Positions 9,474 to 64,000 are shown, counted from the stretch's first letter. The stretch is 64,000 nucleotides of DNA from an uncultured Flavobacteriales bacterium (GCA_964356415.1 CAYHHK010000001.1:38057-102056), one strand, 5' to 3'. Translations and numbers: made by a program. The notes: generated by a model from the sequence alone, not told the origin.

Positions 9474-9505
9474 GCTGTATTAAATTTCATTGAATATCCA
9501 TTTTA

Positions 9506-22334: not shown

Positions 22335-23012
22335 TTAGGATAATGTAATTGAAAAATATTTTTTCATTTGATTTTCCATTTCAGTAAATTCAACATCAGT
22401 AAGATGTTTCTGGGCGAGTGCAAATACTACATTATCTTCCCTGAAAATATGAAGGCGGATTAGCTCGACCAGAGATTTTCCTTGTTCTACTGCGGTATCA
22501 ATAAGTACAGCGCGAGAGGGGATATCAGTCAGTCTGGAGGCCATTCCCATCAAGCTAAACGAAAGAGTTGTTAGCTGCATTATTTTTATATGGTCATTTT
22601 CGAGCATGTCTACTGCAGTTTCAGGAATTGGCGCAGTGCTTTTCTCACCTTTGTCTAACAACCGATCGTGCAGGATAGGAAATAAAATTCGCTCTTCTTT
22701 CAGATTGTGCATCACGATTGTCTCATCCAGAAACTGAAAGAAGTTGCCTAATCTTATATTTCGTTCTTTGGTAATTCCTTCTTTCCTTACTTCAATAAGT
22801 GCCGCTTCAAATTTCTCCAATTCTTCTAAAATAATTTTATGCTCATCAGTAAGGTGACGGAGAAATAATGAAAGTTGCTCATAAGGCACCGGCTGTATGC
22901 TTGGTGGTTTATACGCATCAGGTGGATCCATCGGAGAAAATTCCTGTTGCCCGTTAGTATCCTTTTCCACATTTCTTTTTATGTAATCGGTTTCGGTAAA
23001 AATATTATTCAT
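22335..23012 (-). CDS. hemerythrin HHE cation-binding domain protein
   Basis: Repeated H..E / HHE-like motifs (DEHKII..ELE, MHNLKEERILFP, ENDHIKI, HIFREDNVVF). The track start at 23045 is TTG, and the first ATG is at 23012. Confidence 0.6.
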   Translation of the reverse strand: MNNIFTETDYIKRNVEKDTNGQQEFSPMDPPDAYKPPSIQPVPYEQLSLFLRHLTDEHKIILEELEKFEAALIEVRKEGITKERNIRLGNFFQFLDETIVMHNLKEERILFPILHDRLLDKGEKSTAPIPETAVDMLENDHIKIMQLTTLSFSLMGMASRLTDIPSRAVLIDTAVEQGKSLVELIRLHIFREDNVVFALAQKHLTDVEFTEMENQMKKYFSITLS

Positions 23013-23330
23013 GATAATTTTAATTTGGTTTTGTGTAAAAATCAATCCTTTGATTGAATCCCGCTATGACATTAGTCACCTTTAGAAACGTTATTTTGGG
23101 ATAAACCCGAATTCCCGGTTTGACTTATCGCTTCAACATAAAGCATTGCATATCAACGGAATATAGAAAGACCATAGCCAATGGTATTTGATGATTTCCC
23201 CTGGATTGAGGTAAAAGATGAGGCATTGTCAATTCGAACGAAAAATCGAAAGACAGGCGGCAGAGATTCCGGAGTAAATTGTGATTTAAATGCTGTTAAA
23301 AAGAAACATCTTAGAATTTCGAAAAGATGG

Positions 23331-25450: not shown

Positions 25451-26797
25451 TCAACTAGGTCTCTCGCACCCTTTGCATTGATAAAATTTCCAATTAATCC
25501 ATGTTGCAATAATTGCGAAAGCAATCAAGCCATAAAAAAAATTTGTGGCATTGCCGGTTGCTCCAATCACCGCACCTATTATTATTGAGAAAATAAACGG
25601 GCCGTATGCAGCAACAGCAGCAGTCCATCCGATAACTCCTGCTGCCTGCCTTGGGTTGTGCTGGAAGATAATAGGATACTGACGAAAAGTTGCAGCGTTT
25701 CCGATTCCGGTGAAGAAGAATAATCCGAGCATCACTGCAACAAACATTGGAAATTGTTCCATGCTTGTTGGAGCAACCAATCCCATCGTGATCAGCATTG
25801 TGCAACCTATTATCAATCCTATTCCTGTTATGGTTGTAAGTATAGCACCACCAGTTTTATCAGATATAAAACCAAACAGCACACGGCTGGCAGAGCCAAT
25901 AAGTGGTCCGTAAAAAGCATATTTCAATGGGTCGGGTGCGCCTTCAAAATTTCCGTAAAGTGTTTTCATCAGCATTGGAAATGCAGCTGATAAGCCGGCA
26001 AAGGAACCGAATGTCATCACATATGTAATTGTACAGAACCAGGTATGTTTCTCTTTAAAAATATCCAACTGTTCTTTAAAGGATGCCTTGAGCGGAACAC
26101 TCCGTAAAAACCACCAGCATAAAATTGTCATGATGATGATAAGCGGAACATACCACAGTGCAGCATTCTGTAAATAAATTTGTGATGTGCCAAGGACGTC
26201 TTTTGTTTTAGGATCTACTTTTGTAAAAGTTTCAGAAGCACCACAGATGGCTATCCCAAGCAAAGCCGGAGTCATGAATTGGGCGAGACTTACCCCGAAA
26301 TTTCCAATGCCTGCCTGTATGCCAAGCGCAGTTCCTTTTAACCGTTTTGGAAAAAATAAATTTGTGCTTGGCATATAAGATGAAAAATCTCCTCCGCCAA
26401 ATCCACAGGTGAAAGCAAGAACCATAAAAACCCAGAACGGAGTTTCAGGATCCATCACTGCCAAACCAATACCGATACATGGAATTAATTTTATCAGTGT
26501 TGCAAATGTGATTACATGTCGTGTTCCATAAACCGGCAAAAGAAAAGTGTGAATGATGCGCAATGTTCCCCCTGCCAAGCCGGGCATTGCAGCAAGCCAG
26601 AACAACTGATTCGTCGTAAACTTAAAACCGATCCCCGGAAGTTTCACCACAATTGCACTCATCATAAACCAGGTTGCGAAAGACAATGTAAGGCTTATGG
26701 TTGTTACCGTAAGGGTACGCCATGCGGTTTTTCTGCCTTCCGATTCCCAAAAATAATTATCTTCAGGTTCCCATTTTTTCAGCCATGTTGTTTTCAT
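25451..26797 (-). CDS. narK: MFS nitrate/nitrite transporter NarK
   Basis: 12-TM MFS protein with NarK/NNP-family glycine-rich signature segments. ATG at 26797 (MKTTWLKKW...) starts 16 nt after the narK2 stop. Confidence 0.85.
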   Translation of the reverse strand: MKTTWLKKWEPEDNYFWESEGRKTAWRTLTVTTISLTLSFATWFMMSAIVVKLPGIGFKFTTNQLFWLAAMPGLAGGTLRIIHTFLLPVYGTRHVITFATLIKLIPCIGIGLAVMDPETPFWVFMVLAFTCGFGGGDFSSYMPSTNLFFPKRLKGTALGIQAGIGNFGVSLAQFMTPALLGIAICGASETFTKVDPKTKDVLGTSQIYLQNAALWYVPLIIIMTILCWWFLRSVPLKASFKEQLDIFKEKHTWFCTITYVMTFGSFAGLSAAFPMLMKTLYGNFEGAPDPLKYAFYGPLIGSASRVLFGFISDKTGGAILTTITGIGLIIGCTMLITMGLVAPTSMEQFPMFVAVMLGLFFFTGIGNAATFRQYPIIFQHNPRQAAGVIGWTAAVAAYGPFIFSIIIGAVIGATGNATNFFYGLIAFAIIATWINWKFYQCKGCERPS

Positions 26798-26813
26798 AAT
26801 TTTTGTTTGAATT

Positions 26814-28313
26814 TTAATGCACGTCGGTTGCCTCAATTTTGCCTTTTGTATGCGGGGCTGCTTCATCCCTCATGTGTGTAATAATATGGTGCATCCACCA
26901 CAAGCATAATATGGAAATTCCCCAGAGGAAAACCCACATGCTTGTCCACAATCCTGTTCCTTTAAGCATATAGCCAAAGATGATTGGAGAGAAAAATCCA
27001 CCCAATCCTCCGAGCACACCTACCATTCCTCCAACAGCTCCAACGTCATTGGGGAAGTAATTTGGAATGTGTTTGTAAACTGCAGCTTTTCCTATTCCCC
27101 AAACAATGCCAACTAAAAAAATAAGTATGGTTGCAATCCAGATGTTCGCCTGAAAATAGATATGTGTTGTTCCCTTTGCAATTAGCTGTTTCTTTTTTAC
27201 GATGTCGCCTGATACTACTGTGGCTACCTGCCAGTTTTTTTTCATGGGGAATAATGAAAACTCATCCTCTGAATGATAACGTTCTGGCTTCATGATGAGC
27301 GGGTAATTCATTCCATCAATACTTATCAGGCTGTCGGTAACTAGTGTAACCTTACCGGCTCTTTTGGCAAGAACACCTTCTCCCGGAGATTCAATTTCCA
27401 TTTGGGGTACAATAAGCAGGAAACACATAATGCAAGACGCAATGAAGATCCAATACATCACTTTTCTGGCTCCAAGTTTATCCGACATCCATCCGCCCAA
27501 GGCGCGAATTAACCCTGACGGCATGCTGAAGAGTGAGGCAAGCAATCCGGCAGTGACCAATGAAACAGAGTACATGTTGAGATAATATGGTACGAGCCAT
27601 TGCGAGAGCGCAACAAAACAACCAAACACGAGATAATAATATAATCCGAAACGCCACACACGTACTTGTTTCAGCGGTGCCAGCATCTTAATAAAACTTT
27701 TCCCCCTTGCGGTTTCCGAAATTTTATTTTTTGTGAAAAGCAGAAAAATAATTCCCATTATGATGAGTGCGACAGAATAAATTTGCGGGAGTTGCCTCCA
27801 GCCTTCAAGATTTGTTCCGTTGCCTGTAAGATTTTTTAATAGTGTTGGGGCAATAAGCGTTGTAATTCCGGCACCGAAATTTCCCATGCCGAATATACCG
27901 AGTGCGCGCCCCTGCCATTCTTTGGGGTACCACAGTGATGTGTATGCAATGCCAATTGAAAATCCAACCCCTGCAATTCCAAACCCGAAACTACACAAAG
28001 CGAACGCGGCAAAGCTGTTGGCGTAACTCACAAAGTACATGGGTATTGCGCAGAGAAAAAGTAATCCACCCATCATCCATTTGCCCCCATATTTATCCGT
28101 CCATATTCCTCCATGCAAACGGAAGATAGAACCACTCAAAACAGGAATGGCAAGCAGCCAGCCGATTTCTACCGGACTCCATTTGAAAATCTGATTGTCG
28201 ACAAGAAATGCAACGAGCACTCCATTGAACATCCACACTGCAAAGCAAACAGTGAACGCTAGCGTGTTTAGAAATAAAATACGGTGTGAAGTAGATGTTG
28301 CTTTTTGTTCCAT
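26814..28313 (-). CDS. narK: MFS nitrate/nitrite transporter NarK-type (second copy) with an ~85-aa hydrophilic insertion between TM9 and TM10
   Basis: 499 aa with an NNP-family topology. The insertion ...PQMEIESPGEGVLAKRAGKVTLVTDSLISIDGMNYPLIMKPERYHSEDEFSLFPMKKNWQVATVVSGDIVKKKQLIAKGTTHIYFQAN... is visible in the sequence. Confidence 0.8.
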   Translation of the reverse strand: MEQKATSTSHRILFLNTLAFTVCFAVWMFNGVLVAFLVDNQIFKWSPVEIGWLLAIPVLSGSIFRLHGGIWTDKYGGKWMMGGLLFLCAIPMYFVSYANSFAAFALCSFGFGIAGVGFSIGIAYTSLWYPKEWQGRALGIFGMGNFGAGITTLIAPTLLKNLTGNGTNLEGWRQLPQIYSVALIIMGIIFLLFTKNKISETARGKSFIKMLAPLKQVRVWRFGLYYYLVFGCFVALSQWLVPYYLNMYSVSLVTAGLLASLFSMPSGLIRALGGWMSDKLGARKVMYWIFIASCIMCFLLIVPQMEIESPGEGVLAKRAGKVTLVTDSLISIDGMNYPLIMKPERYHSEDEFSLFPMKKNWQVATVVSGDIVKKKQLIAKGTTHIYFQANIWIATILIFLVGIVWGIGKAAVYKHIPNYFPNDVGAVGGMVGVLGGLGGFFSPIIFGYMLKGTGLWTSMWVFLWGISILCLWWMHHIITHMRDEAAPHTKGKIEATDVH

Positions 28314-32445: not shown

Positions 32446-32895
32446 TCATGGGGCAGGTCTTTTAAAATCAATCCTGCCTTTATCCGGATGTTGTTTTGAA
32501 TAGCGCACAAAATATTTTCCTCCGGGAACAACAATACTATCCTTTGAGATGGGATGAAAAGTATTGCAATTGCTATAGCTGACACCGTCTGCTTCATATT
32601 GAAATTCAACGCCTTCACCTCGAGCAAATGCATCGCAATAGCCTGATGTAATTCCGGTGGTGTATTGAGGATTTTTCAGCAGTGATGCTTCCTCACGGTA
32701 TTCATTGAAAACAAGAATTAATGCAGAAGAAAGGAGCAGGAGAAGGGAAGAGTTGATTGCGAGCCTTATTTTTGACTCACTGCGGAAAATTCTGAATGCA
32801 TTGTAAATAATTCCTGCGCTTAAGACAACGAGAAGAATTGTTTTTACGATTTGACTTGTGAGCAATTCTTCATCGGTAACAATCTTCAGCAACAT
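32446..32895 (-). CDS. hypothetical membrane-anchored protein tightly coupled to narI
   Basis: 149 aa with two N-terminal TM helices and a soluble C-terminal domain. Its start is 3 nt after the narI stop. Confidence 0.5.
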   Translation of the reverse strand: MLLKIVTDEELLTSQIVKTILLVVLSAGIIYNAFRIFRSESKIRLAINSSLLLLLSSALILVFNEYREEASLLKNPQYTTGITSGYCDAFARGEGVEFQYEADGVSYSNCNTFHPISKDSIVVPGGKYFVRYSKQHPDKGRIDFKRPAP

Positions 32896-32898
32896 GGA

Positions 32899-33627
32899 TT
32901 AGTTATTTTTTGGACGATGTAAAGACCATGGAGTGCGGGGACTGCGTACTTTTCTTCTGTCCCAATACCAACGAACCTGCTGAAATGGACGCCAGATGTA
33001 ATTGAATGGCGGTACCAGAAAGTGAACCATTCGGGAGAAAGGAATGAGACCAATAATTGCAAATGCGCCAATGATGTGCAGTTTTACTGTCCATGGTAAT
33101 GGCACAATGGCTGCAATTTCAGGCTGAAGGGTAAAAATGGAGTAGAGGTAAGGAGTAAGCAGTGATGAAAACCATGATGAACCCCAGCGGAAATTATACG
33201 CAATCCACAAGCCAATCACGGTTTGAAAAATCAACAGCAGGTACACTACCAAGTCCATCCTGTTGGTAACGAATTTCAAGCGGGGAGTGGTATAGCGTCT
33301 GATTAAAAGGTTGACCAAACCAGTCAGCATGCTGATTCCGAAAATGAATGCCGTAATTTCCAGAATCATTAAACGGATTGGCTGACTGTTCCAGGCAAGC
33401 ACTCCATGCGGAAACATGAATGCAATAAGATGGCCGCAGAATAGCACAATCACTCCCCAGTGGAAAGGTACTGAACCGTAAAATAGTTTTCTTCCTTCAA
33501 GAAACTGTGAAGAGAGTGATGAGAACTGAAATCCTTTGTAAGTGTAGCGGTAGATTGAACCAACTAAAAAAACAGCGAGCGCCATGTATGGCAGCGCAAT
33601 AAGGAAGAAGTTGTCAAGTGCATTCAT
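32899..33627 (-). CDS. narI: respiratory nitrate reductase gamma subunit NarI (di-heme cytochrome b)
   Basis: 242 aa with 5 TM helices and conserved heme-ligand His residues (HWGVIVLFCGH; HIIGAF..HFLVPPF). Confidence 0.9.
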   Translation of the reverse strand: MNALDNFFLIALPYMALAVFLVGSIYRYTYKGFQFSSLSSQFLEGRKLFYGSVPFHWGVIVLFCGHLIAFMFPHGVLAWNSQPIRLMILEITAFIFGISMLTGLVNLLIRRYTTPRLKFVTNRMDLVVYLLLIFQTVIGLWIAYNFRWGSSWFSSLLTPYLYSIFTLQPEIAAIVPLPWTVKLHIIGAFAIIGLIPFSRMVHFLVPPFNYIWRPFQQVRWYWDRRKVRSPRTPWSLHRPKNN

Positions 33628-33652: not shown

Positions 33653-34450
33653 TTATTTTTCCTTTTCAATGATTAATTCTATTTCAATATTTTGTTTAAA
33701 ATCTTTATCGGAAGTTATTCCGGAAGGTGCCTGATCAGTCTGGCAAGAGCATGGATCTTGAGAATCCTCGCAGCCGGTTACATGAACGTTGTCAGTAACA
33801 ACTGTATCGTAACCAAAGTCCTCTTTCATTACAATTAGTAAGGCCTGCAGCAAGGTGAAATATACAGCCCTGTATTGTTGTGAGAATTCCAATAGCACTT
33901 TATGATGCTTTTTGTAGATCTCATCTTTCTTTTTAATCTTTTCCTCTGCGAACTCACTTGTCATCTTAATAATGGCCGACATTACCAAACGGGTGGCAAT
34001 TTCATTGCGCATTGCTTCATCTTTCATTTTCGGAAGGAGCCGGAGCACATTGGGTAAATGATCCGATAATTCAGTGTGGCAAATATTTCCTGCTTCACGG
34101 TGCTCGCGGTTGAGATTTACAAGTAGTTGTCCGCGCTTGTAATCTTCTCCAAAAAGAATAAAGCCAATGTCAAGGGTAGTGATAGCCTGCACATCAAATG
34201 AACGAAGATAAAGCTCCTGCATATCAGTCAATGTTGCCGCATCAAGGAACTCCATAAATAAGTTCATGGCATCCGATGCCTTGGGCGAGTGAACTGATAG
34301 ATATTGATGAATTGCCTTGATTTTTTCTTTGTGAGAGTCTGCTTCAGGATAAATAAAAAGATCAGCAAGCAATTCATAATTGCTAATGGCAACAGGATGG
34401 GGTTCTGTATGCGTTGATTTATTATCCTCTTTGTCCAATACTGATTCCAT
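33653..34450 (-). CDS. narJ: nitrate reductase Moco-assembly chaperone NarJ (TorD family)
   Basis: 265 aa acidic helical TorD/NarJ-like protein in the narH-narI interval. Confidence 0.7.
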   Translation of the reverse strand: MESVLDKEDNKSTHTEPHPVAISNYELLADLFIYPEADSHKEKIKAIHQYLSVHSPKASDAMNLFMEFLDAATLTDMQELYLRSFDVQAITTLDIGFILFGEDYKRGQLLVNLNREHREAGNICHTELSDHLPNVLRLLPKMKDEAMRNEIATRLVMSAIIKMTSEFAEEKIKKKDEIYKKHHKVLLEFSQQYRAVYFTLLQALLIVMKEDFGYDTVVTDNVHVTGCEDSQDPCSCQTDQAPSGITSDKDFKQNIEIELIIEKEK

Positions 34451-34461
34451 ATTTATTATTT

Positions 34462-35184
34462 TTAATTGTTCATTGCCAATTCCATCTCAATTGCTTTCGG
34501 AAACAGGATATTGTTTTCCAGGTGTATATGCTGGTGTAAATCATTTTCAAACTCCTGCAATTTTGCATACGAATATCTGAAGCTATTACATGCATCTTCA
34601 GGAACAGTATAGTTGTTGGTTATTTTTCTTATTTCATTCATTAGAAGCCCAACCATCTCATGCTCATCTTCCATCATGCTTACCGGATTGGCCACTGTGC
34701 CGAATGGCGATTGTATTACCTGACCTGTTTTTTTTGATTCAGCTAGTTTTTTAATGTACGGAAAAAGAACCTGCTCCTCTTTCATCATGTGTTGATTTAA
34801 TTCATCCATTACCTTCACAAACAGACTTGCAGCTTCAATAACTTCAGGATGCTGATGTCCATGAACTCGGGCAACTTTTTGTGTGTATTCAAAAATTGGA
34901 GCCATTGCCTGCACCACATATTTGTGATGAGTCTGGATTATGTAATCTGCTAAAAAATTTAAATCCCATGTATTAAAATCTTGTGACGGAAGTTTGGTGG
35001 AAATTTCTGCCTGATGTAATTCTTTCTCTAATTGTTCCTGGCTGATTCCTTTTTCACGGCAGACTTTGGACAACGATTTCTTTCCTCCGCAACAGAAATC
35101 AATTCCATACTTTTTAAATACTTCTACTTTACGGTAATCCTTGGCTGCTATTTCTCCTACCGAAATTTCTTTTATCATGTTCAT
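34462..35184 (-). CDS. ytfE: iron-sulfur cluster repair di-iron protein RIC (YtfE/ScdA family)
   Basis: N-terminal ScdA_N motif (YGIDFCCGG) followed by a hemerythrin-like di-iron domain with H..E/HxxxE motifs. Confidence 0.85.
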   Translation of the reverse strand: MNMIKEISVGEIAAKDYRKVEVFKKYGIDFCCGGKKSLSKVCREKGISQEQLEKELHQAEISTKLPSQDFNTWDLNFLADYIIQTHHKYVVQAMAPIFEYTQKVARVHGHQHPEVIEAASLFVKVMDELNQHMMKEEQVLFPYIKKLAESKKTGQVIQSPFGTVANPVSMMEDEHEMVGLLMNEIRKITNNYTVPEDACNSFRYSYAKLQEFENDLHQHIHLENNILFPKAIEMELAMNN

Positions 35185-35204
35185 TATTTCAATTTTTAAA
35201 ATGA

Positions 35205-36755
35205 TTATATACCTCTTCTTACTTTACTTTTAATTCCAAATCCGATTTCACCTTTGGCATCACCTGTGAAGTCCATCATTTCAATGGCTTGCTCGCGGTG
35301 CGCGGGCGGGATTACAAAACGGTCTTCAAACTTAGCCAGTGCAGTAAGATAGAATATGCCATCGGCCATTTCAGCAGTAATGCCAGCTTCCCGCAATGCT
35401 TCATCAGCTTTCTCATCGCTTACATCTCCGACAGTTACTCTTCTTCTGTGAATGCGGACAGCCATCAGTTTTTTCCATTTGTCTTTGATTTTTTCTTCAT
35501 CGCCTGCGCTTAATAAGTTTGCGAGGTATTTCAATGGAAAGCGAACCTGGTCGAGTGTTCCCCATAAATCCTTTGTACTTGTATCATAGAGCCAGTTATC
35601 GTCCCAGTATTTTGCGATCGGGTTCATCTTTCCGGCTTGTGCAGAGTTGTCAACTTGTTTAACTGTAGCCATCACAGGTAACAGAGGTGGTACATAAAAA
35701 AGCATTGGCAGCGTACGGAATTCGGCATGTAGTGGTAGTGCAAGTTTCCATTGTTTGACGTACTTGTATACCGGTGAGAATTGAGCCGCATGAATTGTTG
35801 AATCTGCAACGCCATTCATTTTTGCGGCGCGAATAACTTTTTCATCAAACGGATCAAGAATAATATCAAGATGGCGGTCAATCAGATTTTTCTCATCATC
35901 ATTAATTGCAGATTCAATTTTTGATGCATCATAGAGGAGTACACCAAGGTAGCGGATACGACCAACGCACGAGTGCATGCATGCCGGTGCCAGCCCTGCT
36001 TCAAGGCGCGGAAAGCAAAGGATACATTTCTCGGATTTTCCTGTATGCCAATTGTAATAAGATTTTTTATAAGGGCATGCAGTCACACACATTCTCCATG
36101 CACGGCAAACTTCCTGATTGATAAGCACAACACCATCTTCACCGCGTTTATAGAGCGCACCTGATGGACAAGAAGCAACACAGGCCGGATTCAGGCAATG
36201 ATTGCAGATTCTTGGTAAATAGAAGAATGCCATTCTTTCCAGCTGAAACATTACCTCCTGTTCAGCAGCAGAAAGATTTTTTAGATTTGGGTCGTTGCGG
36301 CCAAAATCCGGTGTTCCGCTCAAGTCATCATCCCAGTTTGGTCCCATTTTAATATCAATAGGTTCCCCGGTGATAAGAGATACAGGCCGTGCCGTCGGCT
36401 GATCATTGCCTTCAGGCGCTTCAATAAGATCAAGATACTTGTAAGTAAACGGCTCGTAATAGTCGTCAATTACCGGCATACTCGGATTGTAAAAGATATT
36501 TGTAAGTCCTCGTCTCTTGCCGGCTCCTTTTAGGGATACTTTCCCATTCTCCTTTTGCCATCCGCCCCTATAAATGCTTTGGTCTTCCCATTTTGTAGGG
36601 TAGCCGGTACCGGGCTTTGTTTCGACATTGTTCCACCACATATATTCTGCGCCTTTCCTGTCAGTCCAGATATTCTTACATGCTACTGAGCAAGTGTGAC
36701 AGCCAATACATTTATCGAGGTGAAATACCATTGATATTTGTGAACGAACATCCAT
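35205..36755 (-). CDS. narH: respiratory nitrate reductase beta subunit NarH
   Basis: 516 aa with four Cys clusters (CIGCHTCSVAC; CNHCLNPACVASC; CRAWRMCVTACPY; CILCFPR...) that are diagnostic of NarH. Confidence 0.95.
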   Translation of the reverse strand: MDVRSQISMVFHLDKCIGCHTCSVACKNIWTDRKGAEYMWWNNVETKPGTGYPTKWEDQSIYRGGWQKENGKVSLKGAGKRRGLTNIFYNPSMPVIDDYYEPFTYKYLDLIEAPEGNDQPTARPVSLITGEPIDIKMGPNWDDDLSGTPDFGRNDPNLKNLSAAEQEVMFQLERMAFFYLPRICNHCLNPACVASCPSGALYKRGEDGVVLINQEVCRAWRMCVTACPYKKSYYNWHTGKSEKCILCFPRLEAGLAPACMHSCVGRIRYLGVLLYDASKIESAINDDEKNLIDRHLDIILDPFDEKVIRAAKMNGVADSTIHAAQFSPVYKYVKQWKLALPLHAEFRTLPMLFYVPPLLPVMATVKQVDNSAQAGKMNPIAKYWDDNWLYDTSTKDLWGTLDQVRFPLKYLANLLSAGDEEKIKDKWKKLMAVRIHRRRVTVGDVSDEKADEALREAGITAEMADGIFYLTALAKFEDRFVIPPAHREQAIEMMDFTGDAKGEIGFGIKSKVRRGI

Positions 36756-40433: not shown

Positions 40434-41300
40434 TTAGTACATTGATTTAGTTTGTCTTTCATAGATGGCATGATTCACAGTTCGCTGTTTTCTTTTTATC
40501 CAGAAGAATGAGAACAAAGTCAGAAGCACGGCAACTCCACCGATTCCGCCCATCAGCATTTTATTTCCAACAGTACTTGTTGCTTGTGTTGCTGCAACTT
40601 CATCAGCATGCTTCAAAAAAGCGGTAACATCTGCAATCTCTGTTTCTGTCAGAGGCCTTGCTTCATATGATTGCCGCATCTGAGGAAATGGCAATCCTGC
40701 GATCACTCCTTTCACACCATCAACAGTTAGTCTTGAAACCGACTGGCTGAGGTCTTTTGCCAGCGCACCACCACTCATGAAGCCTTCCAGATTAACATTA
40801 TGACATGCATTGCAGGTAGGACCGTTATTGGCAAAGCGAATTTTTCCGACAAATAAATCTTGTCCGCGTTGCACATTGCCTGTAGCGGAAGTCATTGTTT
40901 TTAAACTATCAGTGGCAGACTGTGTAACAGACGCTATGGAAGAAGCAGCCGGACTGTTGGTTTTGATATACCTAATTACCTCCCTGATCTGGGCGTCACT
41001 CAAAGCCGGCTGATCCGGCATAGGTACCTGATTGTAGGCTTTGAAAAGTGAATCGGCATATTTATCTCCGCTCTTTATTACTGATTGGGAGGATTTCACA
41101 AACTTAATTATCCAATCCTCTGACTGGCGCAGGTCAATATTTGCCAGATCAGGTCCAACGAGGCGTCCACTGCCAATACTATGACAGGCTGCACAAGTTT
41201 GCTTAAAAGTTGATTCACCTCCATTTTGAGAAGAAGCGGTAAATGTTGCAGTGCAGCATATTAATAAAAATGAAATAGATTTGAGCGTGTGTAATTTCAT
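40434..41300 (-). CDS. di-heme c-type cytochrome, periplasmic, with a C-terminal TM anchor (NarC-like)
   Basis: Signal peptide, two CxxCH motifs (CAACH and CNACH) and a C-terminal hydrophobic helix GGIGGVAVLLTLFSFFWI. It sits 21 bp upstream of narG. Confidence 0.85.
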   Translation of the reverse strand: MKLHTLKSISFLLICCTATFTASSQNGGESTFKQTCAACHSIGSGRLVGPDLANIDLRQSEDWIIKFVKSSQSVIKSGDKYADSLFKAYNQVPMPDQPALSDAQIREVIRYIKTNSPAASSIASVTQSATDSLKTMTSATGNVQRGQDLFVGKIRFANNGPTCNACHNVNLEGFMSGGALAKDLSQSVSRLTVDGVKGVIAGLPFPQMRQSYEARPLTETEIADVTAFLKHADEVAATQATSTVGNKMLMGGIGGVAVLLTLFSFFWIKRKQRTVNHAIYERQTKSMY

Positions 41301-41361
41301 TTGATTACTATTTTGTAATTAATGGTTGAGGATAATTATTCTAGGCCGAACTAATTGATTT

Positions 41362-41934
41362 TTATTTTTTATAAAATGCTCTTTCATTTTCATACATATC
41401 CCCAATTTCATCAGCCCACCTTGCAATCCTTCTGGAAATTGCATAAACAGCAATCAACAATATGGCGGCAATACTGAAAAAGAAATAATCGAATACAGAA
41501 AACTTAAAAGCAACTTTCTTGATTGCCGGCGCATCCGCGGCTGCTGCAGGCGTTGTTACTGAAGCGGATGCTGTCTTGCCTTCAGTATCAATATAACTGA
41601 GAATTGACTTGATCTCATCATCTTTAAGGAATGCGAAATCAGTCATTACTATTTTATTGTAGTCATTAAATAATGCAATGGCGTCTTTGTCACCTGATTT
41701 TACCATGGATTGTGATGACTTAATCCAATTTATCAGCCATTTTTCGTCACGCCTTTGCTGAATGCCAGCTAAGTCAGGTCCAACCAGCTTACCGCTGCCA
41801 ATGCTATGGCAGGCTGCACAGTTGCTTTTATACAGCTGCTTGCCTGATGAAGCATCCGGTATTTGGGCAAATGATTCAGATGAGTAAACGGTAAGAAATA
41901 GTAATACTGTGACAATGAAGGATATCTTATGCAT
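41362..41934 (-). CDS. mono-heme c-type cytochrome, periplasmic, with a C-terminal TM anchor (paralog of the first domain of the downstream di-heme protein)
   Basis: Signal peptide, a CAACH motif and a C-terminal TM helix. The N-terminal ~90 aa are highly similar to 40434..41300 (GKQLYKSNCAACHSIGSGKLVGPDLAGI...WIKSSQSMVKSGDK). Confidence 0.85.
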   Translation of the reverse strand: MHKISFIVTVLLFLTVYSSESFAQIPDASSGKQLYKSNCAACHSIGSGKLVGPDLAGIQQRRDEKWLINWIKSSQSMVKSGDKDAIALFNDYNKIVMTDFAFLKDDEIKSILSYIDTEGKTASASVTTPAAAADAPAIKKVAFKFSVFDYFFFSIAAILLIAVYAISRRIARWADEIGDMYENERAFYKK

Positions 41935-42135
41935 CCAGGTTGTTTTTTATTACGGGTAATAATACATTAGACTTTTCGGAAAATAATATGACAAAAGTCA
42001 ATTCATTTTCAGGTTTGTGTCAGAATAATTATTACGAAATAATATTTTTTAGTACCCAAACACCCATTCAGTGATATTTTTTTCAATCAGGCAGATTATC
42101 CGTATTTTTAGAAATTATATCAATTACAAAAAAAT

Positions 42136-51970: not shown

Positions 51971-53233
51971 CTATAGGTTTTTGTTTTCAAAAAGGATAGC
52001 TGTTCCCTGTCCGCCGCCAATGCATGCAGATGCGATCCCATATTTTACTTTTCTGCGTATCATTTCTTTAGAGATGGTGAGAGACAACCGCAATCCTGTG
52101 GCGGCAAGCGGATGCCCTATTGCAATGGCTCCTCCGTTTACATTCAGTTTGGTTCTGTCAATTCCCAGTTCCTTTTCGCAACCGATTACCTGCGCCGAGA
52201 ATGCTTCGTTAATTTCAAGCAGACCAATATCGGAGATATTCAATCCAGTCATTTCAAGCAAAAGTCTGATTGCCGGAACCGGGCCCAATCCCATGTATTT
52301 CGGATCGATGCCACAACTTGCGCCTCCGATTATTTTTGATATTGGTTTTAAATTCTTTTGTGAAACAGTTTGCAAATTTGCAATAACTGCAGCGGCTGCG
52401 CCATCAACAATTCCACTGCAATTTCCTGCCGTAAGAACTCCCACTTTGTCAAACACTGTAGGCAGTTTACCCAGCGCATCCAGCGTTGTGGCACGGATAT
52501 GTTCATCAATTGAAAAGGAGCTTGTTCCTTTTGGGAGAAAAGCTTTTCTTGATTTAAGGCCTTCAATATTAAACGTGGCGGACTGCAACGATGCGATTTC
52601 CTCAGAGAAGATTTTATTTGTTGTGGCATCAATTGCTCTTTGAAAAGAGGTCATTGCATATTCATCGCAGTCATTTCTTGAGATATCATATTTCTTTGCA
52701 ACATTTTCGGCTGTATATCCCATCGGATATCCGGCGGCAGTATCGTCCAGAGCTTCCCAAAGCATATCCTTAAATACAGGCCTGCCTAAGGGATATCCCA
52801 TTCTGTTTCCAAAACTCACAGTAGGGGAGAGTGACATATTTTCTGTGCCAACACAGAGAACTGTGTCTGCTTTTCCCAGAGTGATTTGTTCTGCACCTGT
52901 AATAATTGTTTCAAAGCCTGATCCGCAAATCCTTTGCACCATTAATGCCGGAACTTCAGCCGGGATTCCGCTAAAGAGAGATATGTGGCGTGGAAGAAAA
53001 TAGGAGTCTGTTGAACTTTGTCCGATATTGGCTGCAATCACCTGATCAATTTCATTAGGTTTCACTCCTGATTTTTGCAGCGTGGATATTGCGGCAAAAA
53101 TCCCTAAATCGGTAGGAGAGATTTGGGAAAGCGAACCACAGTATTTTCCAAAAGGTGTCCTTGTTCCGTCGACGAGATAAATGTCGTCGAATATTATTCC
53201 TATTCCTTTATTTATATGATGGTAGGCTTTCAC
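51971..53233 (-). CDS. acetyl-CoA C-acyltransferase (degradative thiolase)
   Basis: RTPFGKY, catalytic Cys (VQRICGSGFE), NVNGGAIAIGHPLAATG and C-terminal CIGGGQG. Apparent GTG start at 53233 overlaps the upstream stop (GTGA). Confidence 0.85.
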   Translation of the reverse strand: MKAYHHINKGIGIIFDDIYLVDGTRTPFGKYCGSLSQISPTDLGIFAAISTLQKSGVKPNEIDQVIAANIGQSSTDSYFLPRHISLFSGIPAEVPALMVQRICGSGFETIITGAEQITLGKADTVLCVGTENMSLSPTVSFGNRMGYPLGRPVFKDMLWEALDDTAAGYPMGYTAENVAKKYDISRNDCDEYAMTSFQRAIDATTNKIFSEEIASLQSATFNIEGLKSRKAFLPKGTSSFSIDEHIRATTLDALGKLPTVFDKVGVLTAGNCSGIVDGAAAAVIANLQTVSQKNLKPISKIIGGASCGIDPKYMGLGPVPAIRLLLEMTGLNISDIGLLEINEAFSAQVIGCEKELGIDRTKLNVNGGAIAIGHPLAATGLRLSLTISKEMIRRKVKYGIASACIGGGQGTAILFENKNL

Positions 53234-55131
53234 TGAATTTCAGTTTTATTTGAAACGGAAGTTTCCGTTTTTAGAAAATGCTGTTTGGCAATGAGCGCTG
53301 CTCCCAATGATGCCATGAATTGTGGATTTTCAACCGATTCAACTTCTTGCTTAAGTTTTAATCCAAGAATATCTCTCAGGTATGGATGGTAGGCGATCAC
53401 TCCTCCAATGAGATAAATGGGGATTCCGGACATGATGCGCAGTTTGGCAACCCGGTTAACAATGGAGAGATAGACGCCTTTTGAAATATCTTCAACACTC
53501 ATGCCTTCTATGAGCCATTTCATGATTTCTGTCTTGGCGAATACGGTACAAAAACTGTTCAGCTCAGTTTTATTGTTGCTGCGGGCAGCAAGAAGGCTCA
53601 TTTCACTGATGTTGAGGTCGGCCCGTTCTGCAATTTCAGTAATGAATGACCCTGTTCCTGCAGCACATTTGTCATTGAGAAAGAAATTCTCTACCTCACT
53701 GTTGATGCCGCAATGGATCACCTTGATGTCTTCTCCTCCTATGTCTATAATGTTCTTTGCACCGGGATAAGAAAAGGAGACCCCTTCTGCCGCACAATTA
53801 ATTTCTGTTTTTACAATATCTGCGTCAGGAAAATTTTTGCGTCCATAACCGGTGGCGCAGCTGGCCTTAATATTAAACTCACTACGGATTGCACTCATTA
53901 CATGCCGCACTCCAATCTTATCGCGGTTGAGTGTTTTAAGTGCTAATTTGAATGCCACTTTCGAATTGCTGTCGAGGACGATAAATTTTGTGTAAGATGA
54001 GCCGAGGTCAACACCCAAAAAATATTCTCCTGAACCTGATTTCTCTCCTTTAATGACTAATCCATTCCTAGCTTTTTGGCCACCGGCACCGCTAAATGAC
54101 TTGCCGATCAATGATGGATCAAGTGATTTCATAAATGCACTGTTGCTGCGAGAGGTCATTGCCTTTACCATATTTGTAACAGCAAGATTGATGGGAGTGC
54201 GGATATAGTGCTTGCGGCCGTACTCAACTATTTTTCCATTCATGAAATCAATTTCAGTTTGCCTGTTGTTTATCAGGTCAACTGCAAGTGAAGGGAAATG
54301 GTCCCCTGCTTTTTTAAGGTAACGCAAACATTTGCGAATGAATTCATCTTCAAATATTATTTTTTCCGCTTTTGCTACTTCCAGTGCCTCTTCAATTACC
54401 AGTTCGATAAGTTCTACGGTATCGGGTATCTCCATTGCTTCCTTTATGGTGAGCTTACCGATTCCGCACAGTGCTGACAAGGAGGAATTCAGGATTGTTT
54501 TTTCCCAGATCTGTTTCAGTAATTCAAAGGATGAGATGAATTTGGTATTCAGATTGACTTTGTTCAGCAAGTCACTTATTTGCTGAGCAGCGCCGGCTTT
54601 TGAATCATCGAGGGAAGCGATGTAATTGGGCGGATTAAAAAATGTGACTTTTACAATATTCGGGGCATTCAGGTTGCCGGCAAAGTTGATCACAAGGCGT
54701 AATGTTTTACTTTCACCAATTCCTGAGGCAAGAATCTGCTCGACATCAATGCCGTTTTGTGCACTTACAAAAATGGTTTTATCAAAATTAAGATTCATCA
54801 CCTGTTCGACGAATGCTGATGTTTGATATCCTTTTATACTCGCTATAATGATGTCAGGGTTGAAATTTCGTAATTCGGTGAGGCTGCTGTAGATGTTATC
54901 AACGAAAATATGTTTCTGTATTGCTCCGTCCAGTTTTATTCCTTCTTTCCTGATTAAATTAATTTTAATTTTATCAAAATCGCATACCGCCACATTACAT
55001 CCGGCTTCTTTCAGATGAGCAGAAAGAATGAGCCCGACAGGTCCCAGGCCTACCACAGCTACTTTTTGTTCTGCCTTTTCATTTCCTGAAGGATCTGGAG
55101 TTTGTGATCTGATATTATTTTCTTCACTCAT
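53230..55131 (-). CDS. fusion protein: N-terminal 2-dehydropantoate-2-reductase (ApbA/PanE)-like NAD(P)H oxidoreductase domain :: C-terminal BadF/BadG/BcrA/BcrD (HgdC-type) ATPase/activase domain
   Basis: 633 aa. The N-terminus carries VAVVGLGPVGLILSAHL plus KPR-like motifs (~aa 20-330). The C-terminus has YFLGVDLGSSYTKFIVLD and CAAGTGSFITEIAE, the acetate/sugar-kinase-fold activase signatures. Confidence 0.75.
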   Translation of the reverse strand: MSEENNIRSQTPDPSGNEKAEQKVAVVGLGPVGLILSAHLKEAGCNVAVCDFDKIKINLIRKEGIKLDGAIQKHIFVDNIYSSLTELRNFNPDIIIASIKGYQTSAFVEQVMNLNFDKTIFVSAQNGIDVEQILASGIGESKTLRLVINFAGNLNAPNIVKVTFFNPPNYIASLDDSKAGAAQQISDLLNKVNLNTKFISSFELLKQIWEKTILNSSLSALCGIGKLTIKEAMEIPDTVELIELVIEEALEVAKAEKIIFEDEFIRKCLRYLKKAGDHFPSLAVDLINNRQTEIDFMNGKIVEYGRKHYIRTPINLAVTNMVKAMTSRSNSAFMKSLDPSLIGKSFSGAGGQKARNGLVIKGEKSGSGEYFLGVDLGSSYTKFIVLDSNSKVAFKLALKTLNRDKIGVRHVMSAIRSEFNIKASCATGYGRKNFPDADIVKTEINCAAEGVSFSYPGAKNIIDIGGEDIKVIHCGINSEVENFFLNDKCAAGTGSFITEIAERADLNISEMSLLAARSNNKTELNSFCTVFAKTEIMKWLIEGMSVEDISKGVYLSIVNRVAKLRIMSGIPIYLIGGVIAYHPYLRDILGLKLKQEVESVENPQFMASLGAALIAKQHFLKTETSVSNKTEIQ

Positions 55132-55148
55132 TTTATTTTCTTCAAAGG

Positions 55149-56399
55149 CTATTTAACATTGATCTGTGCTCGCTGCGCTTGTGGATTTCGATGCGAAGCG
55201 TGTTGAATTTGTTCAATAAAGGCTTCAATCTTTGTAATGCTTTGTCCTTCCGAGAAAAATCTCAGGTCACACAAGTCACCTTCAATTACAAGATACGGAA
55301 TCCCTGTTTCGTCTTTTAACCTTTTTGGCAAGCCGAACTTCGCATTTGAATTGTTGAAGCAGGTTTTTGAATCATGAAATATGATGCCATCACAAGAGAA
55401 TTCCTTCAGCCATTTTGCCAACATTTTCATTTTAGCTTTTTCACTCCTGTTGATGAAAATATTTGTATAGGCAAGCGCCGATGATTTAAATGGATCTTTT
55501 TCATCAAACTCATCAAATATCCAGCTGTTGCAATACGTAGATGCAACTACACCGGTGTTGTTCTGAATGAATAAATCAGAAAGCATTCTGTTCTTTCCCC
55601 AGATGGGCATACCATCCCAGAAGATGCGTGATTGTTCTTTTTCAACAACTCCGGTTTTCTTCAAAATATTTTCCTGTAGCTCTTTTAAAAGTGTCTGGTA
55701 ATATTGTTTTGCTGTTTCTGTACCCCGCAACACCACAATGGGCCCCATATGTATGGTTGCATCAAAAAAACTGAGTGGTGCAGGTGATGCTTTAGACGTC
55801 CTTAAAACCTGTTGCCAAAGGAGGGTGGCCTCTTTGCTGAGCAATAAGGTTTCCCTGAAGGAATCAATGTCAAATTGTTTCCCACTGGCTTTTTCACATG
55901 CAGGAATAATATTTTTATGCTGCTGAACACCTGTGGTAATTATTTCCTCTGAAACATCATCCACGTATCTTGGCGGGGTTATACCTGTAATAGGGCAGTT
56001 AAATTCTTTGGCATAAAAGTTAAACCAATCCTGAACTTCCCTGCATTGATTGGTATTGTAAACTATCAGGTCGGGTTTAGGAACGCCTTTCATTCCATAG
56101 TGAGATTGTAAAGGCGTTTTGCCGCTGAGGTAAGAACCGATGTCACTCGTCGTGTATGAGCATATGTGGTTTGAGAAGCCAAGTTTACCCGCTTCAGGAA
56201 TGAAATCGGTAGCGGTACGTGTGGCACCAAGGAGTGCACCGTGATTTTCAGGAAAATATACATTGAACCCAAAAGATCTTAGCAGTTCGGCTGGCCCAAC
56301 GCTTGTACACCATGCGATTTTTCGTTCACCGGTTTCCAATGATCGAAAATATTCGCTCATCACTGCTTTTAATAACTGTGTTGATTTGATTTCGTACAT
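55149..56399 (-). CDS. 2-hydroxyacyl-CoA dehydratase / benzoyl-CoA reductase B/C family subunit (HgdB/BcrC-like), stand-alone
   Basis: HGD-D family features (conserved Cys and C-terminal ...CDLRFF...). The track start at 56471 is TTG. ATGs lie at 56441 and 56399; the latter abuts the ligase stop (TGAtATG) without overlap. Confidence 0.7.
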   Translation of the reverse strand: MYEIKSTQLLKAVMSEYFRSLETGERKIAWCTSVGPAELLRSFGFNVYFPENHGALLGATRTATDFIPEAGKLGFSNHICSYTTSDIGSYLSGKTPLQSHYGMKGVPKPDLIVYNTNQCREVQDWFNFYAKEFNCPITGITPPRYVDDVSEEIITTGVQQHKNIIPACEKASGKQFDIDSFRETLLLSKEATLLWQQVLRTSKASPAPLSFFDATIHMGPIVVLRGTETAKQYYQTLLKELQENILKKTGVVEKEQSRIFWDGMPIWGKNRMLSDLFIQNNTGVVASTYCNSWIFDEFDEKDPFKSSALAYTNIFINRSEKAKMKMLAKWLKEFSCDGIIFHDSKTCFNNSNAKFGLPKRLKDETGIPYLVIEGDLCDLRFFSEGQSITKIEAFIEQIQHASHRNPQAQRAQINVK

Positions 56400-56400
56400 A

Positions 56401-58149: not shown

Positions 58150-58160
58150 TTTGATTATTA

Positions 58161-59021
58161 TTAAACAGCCAGTGCCTGTTTTTCCAATAACTTTTTATGG
58201 CGATAGCCTCCCCACAAGGCTGCTCCAAGGGCGCCGGCATAAATGGCATCGGGATGCGTTTTTATTTCAAATTTTTTTCCTGTTTCTATTAATTGCTCTT
58301 CAATTGCCTGAATCATTCCTGTGTTTAGTGCCATGCCACCTGTAAGAAAAATAGGGGATGCTGCCTTTAATGAACTCATAAGTTTGATAATTCGGGAGGC
58401 GATGGAAAGATGAATTCCTTTGATGATGTCCGGTGTAGAAATCCCCCTTGATACCATGTTGATTACATCCGTTTCTGCCAATACAGCACATATCCCTGAG
58501 GAAATTTCGGGTTGGTTTGCCTTCATTGACACCTCTCCCACTTCCTCAATGGACAATCCTAAATAGCGCGAAATATTTTCAAGAAACTGGCCTGAACCGG
58601 AAGCGCATTGTCCTGTCATTTTGTAATCTTCCACACGCGCATTCTCACTGATGCGGATTGCCCGCACGTATAAAGCACCAAGATCAACAACGGTTCTTGC
58701 TTCAGGAAAAAAATAATTGGCTCCTCTCGCATGGGTAGTCATTCCATAAAAGTGGCCCCGCTTTTTTTTAACTAAATCGCCTTCTCCTGTGGAGGCAAGG
58801 TATGCAATGTCTTCATATTGAAGATTGTGTTTTGTAAGCATTGCCTGCACCATCTCATCAGCGACTTGTGTAGGGTTGCGTTTCCTTATTTTTTCTGTGT
58901 GCTTGTCATTGATGATGGGATGGTCAGAATAGTCCATTAGTACTAACTTTATGAAGTTGCTTCCGACGTCTATTCCCATTGTGAAATAGGATTTTGACAT
59001 ATTTGAATTATTTTTTATCAT
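58161..59021 (-). CDS. BadF/BadG/BcrA/BcrD-family ATPase, short form (BcrD/BadG-like subunit)
   Basis: 286 aa with the MGIDVGSNFIKLVL ATPase phosphate-1 motif and CASGSGQFLE. It is the last gene of the four-gene reductase cluster. Confidence 0.8.
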   Translation of the reverse strand: MIKNNSNMSKSYFTMGIDVGSNFIKLVLMDYSDHPIINDKHTEKIRKRNPTQVADEMVQAMLTKHNLQYEDIAYLASTGEGDLVKKKRGHFYGMTTHARGANYFFPEARTVVDLGALYVRAIRISENARVEDYKMTGQCASGSGQFLENISRYLGLSIEEVGEVSMKANQPEISSGICAVLAETDVINMVSRGISTPDIIKGIHLSIASRIIKLMSSLKAASPIFLTGGMALNTGMIQAIEEQLIETGKKFEIKTHPDAIYAGALGAALWGGYRHKKLLEKQALAV

Positions 59022-59106
59022 TATTGTTCGCTTATCTTCTGTTAGAAAATCATTAGGTGGCTTTTTTGGGAAAGTACAATATTGTGATTAAATTAATATA
59101 TGATAT

Positions 59107-59910: not shown

Positions 59911-59913
59911 TGG

Positions 59914-61323: not shown

Positions 61324-61347
61324 TTATTGTTTCCTTTTTAAAAGTGT

Positions 61348-62649: not shown

Positions 62650-62704
62650 TTTGTAGTTTTTTCTGTGACTTAATATTTGTGAGATATCATCTTGATATTA
62701 TTAT

Positions 62705-63868: not shown

Positions 63869-64000
63869 ATGGCATTATATTTTTACGAAGAAAGTTATTA
63901 ATCATAAGATTGAATATGATGCCGGTCAAATAAAAAAATACGAAAAAATACTTTCTGTGATATTCTGAATTTATGGAGCAATCTTGAATTAAATTGAAGT

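Follow-up and report, generated by a model that had tools for sequence, protein, structure and literature searches.

A RIC/YtfE-family di-iron protein gene embedded between narH and narJ in the nitrate reductase operon of an uncultured Flavobacteriales bacterium

In this work, we analysed a 64,000-nt stretch of DNA from an uncultured Flavobacteriales bacterium (hereafter the window) and found that a full-length gene of the RIC/YtfE family of di-iron proteins interrupts the narGHJI operon, between the gene for the iron-sulfur subunit of the nitrate reductase and that for its chaperone. This is an arrangement that we met in none of the best 80 of at least 595 related loci. A previous sequence-only reading of the window had placed such a gene at 34462-35184 within an otherwise canonical operon, and both statements were confirmed: the gene occupies exactly these positions on the minus strand, and narG, narH, RIC, a narJ-like gene and narI follow one another on that strand. 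The protein adds one more member to a family already well known, and the operon is built of standard parts; it is the gene order that is unusual. Loose neighbourhoods of RIC and nar genes, as for dnrN of Bacillus licheniformis (PMC4719734), and the coupling of a RIC to an NO reductase, as for NorA, were known already. A non-exhaustive literature search returned such looser neighbourhoods only, and no description of a RIC inside narGHJI.

The genome is that of a low-GC (0.40) member of the Bacteroidota, a placement given by the names that the nearest homologues carry. All long ORFs from 31.8 to 41.9 kb of the window are on the minus strand and, in the direction of transcription, encode two cytochromes c, NarG, NarH, RIC, the NarJ-like protein, NarI, the product of orf149 and a beta-carbonic anhydrase (Table 1). 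NarG, NarH and NarI, whose genes are thus co-oriented, all pass their equivalog cutoffs. We sought a twin-arginine motif in the N-terminus of the narG product and saw none, and the protein scores as the membrane-bound, cytoplasm-facing type. In the case of the chaperone, the Pfam search was without a match and the NCBIfam score stays below the cutoff; the product has a long C-terminal tail containing Cys, and it matches the solved NarJ structure 8jzd at E 2.6e-5. Its gene is the positional orthologue of the one that lies after narH and before narI in each of the 80 related loci retained (the best 80 of at least 595), and it is, judging from sequence and position, very probably a NarJ of a divergent subfamily. 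At least one cytochrome c gene precedes narG in every one of these best 80 (of at least 595) loci that reaches upstream of narG, and homologues of orf149 lie directly 3' of narI in 22 of the same 80 (again the best of at least 595), nearly all of them labelled Bacteroidota.

Table 1. Features of the nitrate reductase operon and its surroundings in the window
Feature	Position	Strand	Match or basis
Two NarK-family nitrate/nitrite transporter genes	25451..28313 (26814-28313; 25451-26866)	-	TIGR00886 E 4.7e-55, 2.1e-87; MFS_1
orf149, uncharacterised predicted membrane protein after narI	32446..32895	-	Without Pfam or NCBIfam match
narI, nitrate reductase gamma (membrane cytochrome b) subunit	32899..33627	-	PF02665 E 7.2e-59; TIGR00351 120.2 bits, cutoff 105.55
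narJ-like chaperone gene, 265 aa	33653..34450	-	TIGR00684 E 8.7e-14, 51.8 bits (cutoff 59.35)
RIC-narJ spacer, 11 nt, AAATAATAAAT on coding strand	34451..34461	-	Read from sequence
RIC/YtfE-family di-iron protein gene, 240 aa	34462..35184	-	TIGR03652; ScdA_N and Hemerythrin domains
narH-RIC spacer, 20 nt, TCATTTTAAAAATTGAAATA on coding strand	35185..35204	-	Read from sequence
narH, nitrate reductase beta (Fe-S) subunit, 516 aa	35205..36755	-	TIGR01660, 644.7 bits, cutoff 524
narG, nitrate reductase alpha subunit, 1205 aa	36795..40412	-	TIGR01580, 1435.8 bits, cutoff 1084
Cytochrome c gene, 288 aa, directly 5' of narG	40434..41300	-	PF00034, E 6.9e-17
Cytochrome c gene, 190 aa, first gene of the cluster	41362..41934	-	PF00034, E 1.9e-10
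Candidate operon control site, FNR/Crp-type palindrome TGACTTTTGTCAT	41988..42000	-	Centred 60 nt 5' of the operon's first ATG

Further downstream on the same strand are two NarK-type transporters, a hemerythrin-domain protein and a porin. Both transporters score under the TIGR00886 trusted cutoff, and the pair would fit a model of nitrate import and nitrite export serving a cytoplasm-facing Nar. The same strand also carries a full molybdenum-cofactor set (moaA, moeA, mobA, moeB, moaE, moaC/B) and, taken together with the transporters and the nar genes, this makes the region a nitrate-respiration island. When hem236, the second protein with a hemerythrin domain, was compared by sequence with the PDB, no significant match appeared.

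The RIC ORF is intact from ATG to TAA. Its product reaches 251.6 bits against TIGR03652 ('iron-sulfur cluster repair di-iron protein', cutoff 204.7), covering model positions 1-216 of 216, and consists of an N-terminal ScdA_N domain (PF04405, 77.6 bits, cutoff 32.5) and a C-terminal Hemerythrin domain (PF01814, 73.5 bits). Its residues 8-233 can be aligned with the E. coli YtfE structure 5FNN (E 5.8e-34), and the protein aligns with S. aureus ScdA as well. When the di-iron ligands and the electron-relay role of Cys30/Cys31 are taken from the study of YtfE (PMC9052748), the Cys pair C31-C32 of the window protein (motif 'DFCCGGK') is aligned to Cys30/Cys31, and H87, H132, H175, H219, E136 and E223 correspond to the ligands His84, His129, His160, His204, Glu133 and Glu208; in the same alignment H108 matches His105 and C199 matches Cys184. 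By these sequence criteria, the gene is a bona fide member of the RIC/YtfE family. However, it falls under the cutoff of the YtfE equivalog (NF008221, 176.1 versus 254 bits) and under those of the ScdA (NF009777, 135.1 versus 259 bits) and DnrN (NF041614, 98.3 versus 300 bits) subgroups, and is therefore best described as a generic RIC of a Bacteroidota clade rather than as a YtfE orthologue. The words 'cluster repair' should be read, for this protein, as a family name only. The protein is predicted to be without a signal peptide and located in the cytoplasm.

A pseudogene, a possibility raised by the sequence-only reading, is ruled out, since the gene is full length and above the family cutoff, keeps all its catalytic residues and ligands, and has a dN/dS of ~0.04. 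This last value comes from a comparison with the orthologue in L085, a close metagenomic relative (dN = 0.088, dS ~2.0, the latter near saturation); the narI genes of the same two loci gave similar figures (dN 0.055, dS 1.6). The codon comparison thus shows RIC to be under strong purifying selection. A chimeric assembly is likewise ruled out, because the exact narH-RIC-narJ DNA recurs base for base in four independent assemblies, ENA ERZ4201064 and the Logan runs SRR24858484, ERR3856788 and SRR24858483, the three Logan runs coming from two studies.

We then considered how the embedded gene is likely to be transcribed. The spacers on either side of it, described earlier as 17-20 bp, turned out to be 20 nt on the narH side and 11 nt on the narJ side. 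No terminator-like hairpin was predicted at either RIC junction on the minus strand, and the 20-nt spacer is itself too short for a terminator. A scan for sigma-70-like promoters gave 16 matches against 26.7 expected from shuffled sequence, including one hexamer pair at 35233-35204 that is within chance expectation. The Bacteroidetes -7 motif TAnnTTTG is under-represented in the window (37 matches versus 68.8 expected); one such motif, TAAGTTTG at 35327-35334, lies inside narH, 143 nt 5' of RIC, and is also within chance expectation. These scans neither favour nor exclude an internal RIC promoter in the 3' end of narH. By pattern matching, we found no FNR/Crp-like box upstream of RIC, the sole box in the operon being the one at 41988-42000. 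Altogether, the single strand, the short spacers, the lack of a predicted flanking terminator and the lack of a box of its own suggest that RIC is most likely co-transcribed with Nar, which in part supports the co-expression proposed in the sequence-only reading.

The box ahead of the operon has the TGAy-N4-rTCA pattern that is common to the upstream regions of six stand-alone RIC genes. Such boxes are not significantly enriched in the window (7 matches versus 4.0 +/- 2.5 in shuffles), so that a function for this one is deduced from its position alone, and it is a lead only. A similar box precedes the nar cluster in just 13 of 62 related loci and is mostly not conserved; we therefore make no claim of conserved regulation. 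The promoter-proximal placement of four of the seven boxes in the window is suggestive.

The rarity of the arrangement was assessed by synteny. One genome per GTDB species was scanned with NarH, the best 80 of at least 595 related loci were kept, and all window proteins were compared with these by tblastn. The 80 loci, with 71-95% NarH identity, belong to Bacteroidota, Ignavibacteriota, Calditrichota, Gemmatimonadota and some Proteobacteria and Myxococcota. Throughout these best 80 of at least 595 the order is cyt c - narG - narH - narJ - narI, and RIC stands between narH and narJ in 0 of the 80 species-representative loci. The possibility that narH-RIC-narJ is a lineage norm, for which the sequence-only reading had recommended comparative synteny, is therefore rejected within this sample. 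The gap between narH and narJ, whose median is 6 nt, is below 100 nt in 78 of the best 80 (of at least 595) loci, and in the seven nearest operons (L001-L007, NarH 91-95% identical) narH passes straight to narJ. The two exceptions hold unrelated ORFs, one of 193 aa that is lipoprotein-like (L019) and one of 259 aa that is possibly an outer-membrane protein (L032). In a collection of 5.8 billion proteins, RIC clusters at least 85% identical to ours numbered two, that of the window itself and that of L085, while a metagenome scan with the RIC protein gave two distant short loci, at 46% and 36% identity. The arrangement is thus rare and confined to a narrow lineage. L085 is the sole close relative that keeps RIC next to narJ (RIC 85% identical in amino acids, NarI 91% identical). 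Its order is narH, a gene for a T9SS-sorted protein, RIC, narJ (12 nt after RIC), a beta-propeller gene and narI, so that a T9SS-tail protein interrupts the narH-RIC adjacency and the beta-propeller gene splits narJ from narI. The presence of unrelated genes at the narH-narJ junction in L019, L032 and L085 makes position alone weaker evidence of function; the site could be permissive rather than selected.

Where the embedded gene comes from can be read, with some caution, from its nearest relatives. Nine RIC homologues with 66-75% identity all lie apart from nar, their contigs carrying none of the nar genes. The commonest neighbourhood of these stand-alone genes is (porin) - Thioredoxin_9 - RIC - (small ORF or cytochrome c) - Crp/Fnr regulator - PTPS - radical SAM. 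Most of them are beside the Crp/Fnr regulator, shorter contigs showing a partial neighbourhood; the gene directly 5' of RIC in L094 and L097 encodes a beta-eliminating lyase instead of Thioredoxin_9, and NO-reductase-like genes are nearby in two cases. Six stand-alone upstream regions were aligned, and they contain two TGAy-N4-rTCA palindromes, ~60 and ~115-160 nt before the ATG. In a quick neighbour-joining tree without support values, the RICs of the window and of L085 nest within the stand-alone clade. This nesting, together with the lack of a box upstream of the embedded gene, makes it parsimonious to suppose that RIC was recently relocated from a stand-alone locus into the nar operon, losing its own control region.

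Linkage of RIC to nar has arisen more than once. A RIC is found at most 8 kb from nar in 12 of the best 80 (of at least 595) loci, in about eight configurations, and none is within 8 kb in the other 68. In two Saprospiraceae (L033 and L044), the gene lies between narG and narH; these RICs form a separate clade in the neighbour-joining tree, which points to an independent intra-operon capture. Elsewhere RIC is co-oriented and directly upstream of the nar operon (L029), divergent and upstream (L009 and L011), or downstream (L023, L024, L028, L032, L035, L060 and L065). As a rough estimate for a single-copy gene in a ~4-Mb genome, with no phylogenetic correction and with one of the two Saprospiraceae-type cases counted as an event, chance would give such proximity in ~0.3 of 80 loci.

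What could be the benefit of such wiring? What RIC proteins do in vivo is a matter of dispute (PMC9268430 versus PMC9052748), the proposals being Fe-S repair, iron donation, release of NO and reduction of nitrite. The older view holds that RIC repairs or protects nitrosylated Fe-S clusters (PMC9268430), and R. solanacearum NorA mutants do suffer Fe-S stress during denitrification (PMC9045102). More recently, E. coli YtfE was described as a high-affinity (Km ~90 uM), low-capacity nitrite-to-NO reductase in which the Cys pair relays electrons, and its role was proposed to be the optimization of nitrate respiratory growth (PMC9052748); S. aureus ScdA has nitrite-to-NO reductase activity too (PMC12412097). 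NarG itself releases nitrite into the cytoplasm and reduces part of it to NO (PMC9052748). Given these activities of YtfE and ScdA, the coupling to Nar may serve nitrite removal rather than, or besides, repair.

We think it probable that the window gene encodes a Nar-coupled RIC that manages cytoplasmic nitrite and NO and is made in step with NarGHI. According to this proposal, RIC would have moved, in a narrow Bacteroidota lineage, from a stand-alone locus with Crp/Fnr boxes to its place between narH and narJ. Since we recognised no promoter or terminator belonging to RIC, its transcription would most likely start at an operon promoter that precedes both cytochrome c genes and carries the FNR-type box, and the protein would accompany NarGHI every time, in proportionate amounts. 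With NarG facing the cytoplasm and RIC apparently lacking a signal peptide, RIC would act on the nitrite and NO that Nar produces there, an anticipatory management of both compounds. The di-iron centre, fed via Cys31-Cys32, might bind nitrite or reduce it to NO, which would then be disposed of by NO-consuming enzymes encoded elsewhere; nitrite competition at NarG would be relieved, and nitrosylation of the many Fe-S clusters in NarGH and in other proteins would be limited. Within this explanation, we favour nitrite/NO turnover over Fe-S repair proper as the step that RIC would perform. When every explanation is taken into account, the chance that nitrite reduction or NO handling is the actual role comes close to even, and Fe-S repair or protection proper appears rather unlikely.

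Further observations count against this proposal. The closest nar operons, L001-L007, work without an embedded RIC. Moreover, Nor, Hcp, Hmp, NirK and NirS were sought by annotation across the 64-kb window, and none is present.

The first alternative is that RIC is no stress protein but a dedicated maturation factor for Nar, which together with NarJ would supply iron to apo-NarGH or help to insert its five Fe-S clusters. NarG depends on NarJ for its FS0 cluster to be inserted, and in the two lineages with a RIC at this junction the gene is directly 5' of narJ, even though the narH-RIC adjacency is broken in L085. A link to cluster assembly would also agree with the interaction of RIC proteins with the ISC and SUF machinery, as described in two reports (bioRxiv 10.1101/2021.02.18.431928; PMC12720416). 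However, the Saprospiraceae RICs sit between narG and narH, away from narJ. No RIC separates narH from narJ in 78 of the best 80 (of at least 595) operons, those with 91-95% identical NarH included, the remaining two being the operons with unrelated ORFs, and most of the sample (68 of the best 80 of at least 595, as seen above) does without a RIC anywhere within 8 kb. Furthermore, in the work of Crack et al. YtfE gave up iron solely under conditions harmful to its own centre (PMC9052748), and the biochemistry of YtfE and ScdA casts doubt on iron donation as a physiological function (PMC9052748, PMC12412097). We consequently hold a maturation role to be unlikely.

One could also imagine that RIC is a neutral hitch-hiker, brought by local rearrangement to a permissive narH-narJ junction while keeping a housekeeping or stress role independent of Nar. 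The unrelated genes at this junction in L019, L032 and L085, and the beta-propeller gene that L085 carries between narJ and narI as well, are what such permissiveness would produce, and the GC content of RIC, the lowest in the operon (0.368, the others being 0.39-0.44), is consistent with a different origin. What makes us regard neutrality as quite improbable is that nar linkage recurs far above the chance estimate, with two independent intra-operon captures among its configurations, and that RIC is under strong purifying selection, the RIC-narJ pair being kept across two diverged lineages.

A bolder reading, to which we give little credence, is that the embedded RIC, far from being a stress accessory, is a working part of the respiratory module, either catalysing the nitrite-to-NO step, so that a cytoplasmic Nar-RIC(-Nor) chain would replace NirK/NirS, or assisting NarJ in the insertion or maintenance of NarGH Fe-S clusters. 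If this were true, the fact that cyt c-narGHJI operons have repeatedly and independently captured RIC and other genes of the hemerythrin fold would mark an unrecognised dependence of Nar on di-iron proteins. Finally, an artefact is almost inconceivable: the source MAG could in principle be chimeric, but we found no evidence of this, and neither a false join nor a decaying gene agrees with the four assemblies and the intact, selected ORF described above.

Returning to the proposal that RIC manages the nitrite and NO made by Nar, the present data bear on a suggestion of Crack et al., namely that YtfE keeps NarG-dependent nitrate respiration running as nitrite builds up (PMC9052748). A RIC wired into narGHJI, captures at another junction of the operon, and a RIC in the neighbourhood of nar in 12 of the best 80 (of at least 595) loci provide independent comparative-genomic support for a Nar-RIC link. 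The likely change is regulatory, from sensing damage, as expected of the stand-alone genes with their Crp/Fnr neighbour, to anticipating it, expression being bound to that of the very enzyme responsible for the hazard. The locus discloses neither a new protein family nor a new mechanism, and would come as no great surprise to a specialist. Its practical use is modest and concerns the annotation of Bacteroidota denitrifiers of wastewater and sediment, together with a clean genetic system in which RIC function could be addressed.

Known systems resemble the window locus only in part. As in E. coli YtfE (5FNN / 7BHA), an ScdA_N domain with a vicinal Cys pair is joined to a hemerythrin-like four-helix bundle, and the full-length alignment conserves the six di-iron ligands, His105 and the Cys pair; unlike the window gene, which is within narGHJI, ytfE is a separate gene of the NsrR/NarP nitrosative-stress regulon (PMC1274295). 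As a rule, RIC genes belong to regulons that respond to NO or nitrite (PMC1274295), and a review of the family describes them as 'not usually clustered' with genes of nitrosative defence. A typical RIC is under its own NO or nitrite control, through an NsrR, HcpR, NorR or Dnr site, although this trait is not strictly defining; the window RIC is without an FNR/Crp-like box.

NorA of Cupriavidus necator and Ralstonia solanacearum is also a RIC-family di-iron, NO-binding protein coupled genetically to a denitrification enzyme. Its partner, however, is an NO reductase and not a nitrate reductase, and in C. necator norA and norB form one operon. There norA is regulated by NorR together with the NO reductase gene norB (PMC9045102). 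The gene is upstream of that of the enzyme, whereas the window RIC stands between a subunit gene and a chaperone gene; and, being under NO-sensing NorR control, its expression is reactive and not tied to the nitrate step. The nar1 cluster of B. licheniformis likewise unites the RIC homologue dnrN with narGHJI, fnr, narK and qnorB (PMC4719734), but there dnrN is outside narGHJI, after fnr, narK and qnorB, and does not interrupt the structural operon.

Compared with the canonical narGHJI of E. coli and narCGHJIK of Thermus thermophilus, the window operon has the same NarG, NarH and NarI equivalogs and a NarJ-like chaperone gene before narI. It differs in that the contiguity of narH and narJ is broken by a 723-bp extra gene, and in having two cytochrome c genes, orf149 after narI and a hemerythrin-domain protein further downstream; a cytochrome c gene ahead of narG recalls the Thermus narC. 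The stand-alone Bacteroidota RIC loci (L086-L091 and L094-L097) contain the nearest relatives of the embedded gene, identical in length and domains and forming its parent clade, and differ from it in lying outside nar, in carrying two FNR-like boxes (in the six examined) and, mostly, in having a Crp/Fnr regulator as neighbour. In two of them, L089 and L090, a homologue of the 190-aa cytochrome c of the window (48% identical) is directly 3' of RIC.

The cytochrome c genes ahead of narG recall the narC that heads the narCGHJIK operon of Thermus. One or two such genes were found 5' of narG in every related locus that extends far enough upstream, and the loci arranged in this way span Bacteroidota, Ignavibacteriota, Gemmatimonadota and some Proteobacteria. 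The pattern suggests that cytochrome c genes upstream of narG mark a distinct 'cyt c-Nar' subtype. Downstream of narI, the window encodes a hemerythrin-domain protein that the RIC model matched only weakly, in the C-terminal half of the model, and for which a PDB sequence search returned no significant match. Homologues of this protein occur in 49 of the 80 closest NarH-related loci (L001-L080, the best 80 of at least 595) and frequently lie directly after narI. In 48 of the 80 they are co-oriented, 3' of narI and 36-73% identical to the window's protein, and in L052 the homologue is on the opposite strand. Given this recurrence downstream of narI, a di-iron/hemerythrin-fold accessory gene looks like a near-standard part of the cyt c-narGHJI cluster type.

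Other genes of this kind are found inside the operons themselves. The bacteriohemerythrin-like gene shared by L002 (a Chitinophaga MAG, with 93% NarH identity to the window) and the metagenomic relative L085 is a further hemerythrin-fold gene that shifts place within these operons. In addition, two Saprospiraceae species (L033 and L044) carry intact genes for RIC, the YtfE-family di-iron protein, of 236 and 245 aa and 45-49% identity to the window's RIC. Since these two fall in a RIC clade other than that of the window in a neighbour-joining tree without support values, their location between narG and narH represents an independent intra-operon capture. Domain make-up also varies among RIC homologues: among the matches listed (P0021-P0120), those from Bacteroidota at 57-69% identity are mostly fusions of about 316 aa with an extra PF10006 (DUF2249) domain, and this domain is absent from the window's RIC as well as from its nearest relatives. 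The narH-narJ and narJ-narI junctions are hot spots of gene gain, with unrelated genes inserted at nar junctions in the other lineages L019, L032 and L085.

Features of the nar loci and of the surrounding window (FNR-like box, TGAy-N4-rTCA palindrome)
Feature	Location	Strand	Remark
Xanthine-dehydrogenase-family molybdoenzyme	window 8523-12298	-	
Hemerythrin-domain protein, 236 aa	window 22335-23045	-	PF01814 only
FNR-like box TGACTAATGTCAT	window 23066-23078		pattern match; precedes 236-aa hemerythrin-domain gene
orf149, hydrophobic, 149 aa	window 32446-32895	-	directly 3' of narI
NarJ-like protein, C-terminal ~90 residues	window, within 33653-34450	-	outside region matching NarJ models
Two cytochrome c genes	window 40434-41934	-	upstream of narG
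2-Hydroxyacyl-CoA dehydratase/benzoyl-CoA-reductase-like genes (HGD-D x4, BcrAD_BadFG x3) and beta-oxidation genes	window 53230-63868	-	
FNR-like box	window 63916-63928		upstream of gene 62705-63868
Bacteriohemerythrin-like gene, 137 aa	L002 7508-7918		between narG and narH
Homologue of the L002 gene, 66% identical	L085 5133-5546		3' of narI/orf149
Intact RIC genes	L033 7268-7972; L044 7175-7879		between narG and narH
Lipoprotein-like ORF	L019 9869-10450		between narH and narJ
259-aa ORF, may be an outer-membrane protein	L032 9636-10415		between narH and narJ
T9SS-tail protein; beta-propeller gene	L085 138-1010; 2632-3732		narH-narJ; narJ-narI junction

Two further products of the cluster deserve mention. 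Pfam and NCBIfam searches gave no match for orf149; its position after narI is kept in 22 of the 80 loci (best 80 of at least 595), essentially the Bacteroidota-labelled ones, and it is a possible Nar accessory subunit. At 265 aa the NarJ-like protein is long, and its C-terminal tail holds a Cys-rich stretch (…GCEDSQDPCSCQTDQ…).

The NarH proteins of L001-L007 are 91-95% identical to that of the window (35205-36755), and their MAGs are labelled Chitinophaga, Pedobacter, Daejeonella, Lutibacter and Saprospiraceae; the NarH cluster at 90% identity has 221 members. According to these identities among differently labelled MAGs and the size of the cluster, the nar island looks laterally mobile within Bacteroidota, or else some bins carry wrong labels, such as L008, assigned to Bifidobacteriaceae, and L037, assigned to Enterobacterales. 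In the window, the nitrate island is flanked by the HGD-D/BcrAD_BadFG cluster. Both this cluster and the xanthine-dehydrogenase-family molybdoenzyme point to anaerobic degradation as part of the organism's metabolism.
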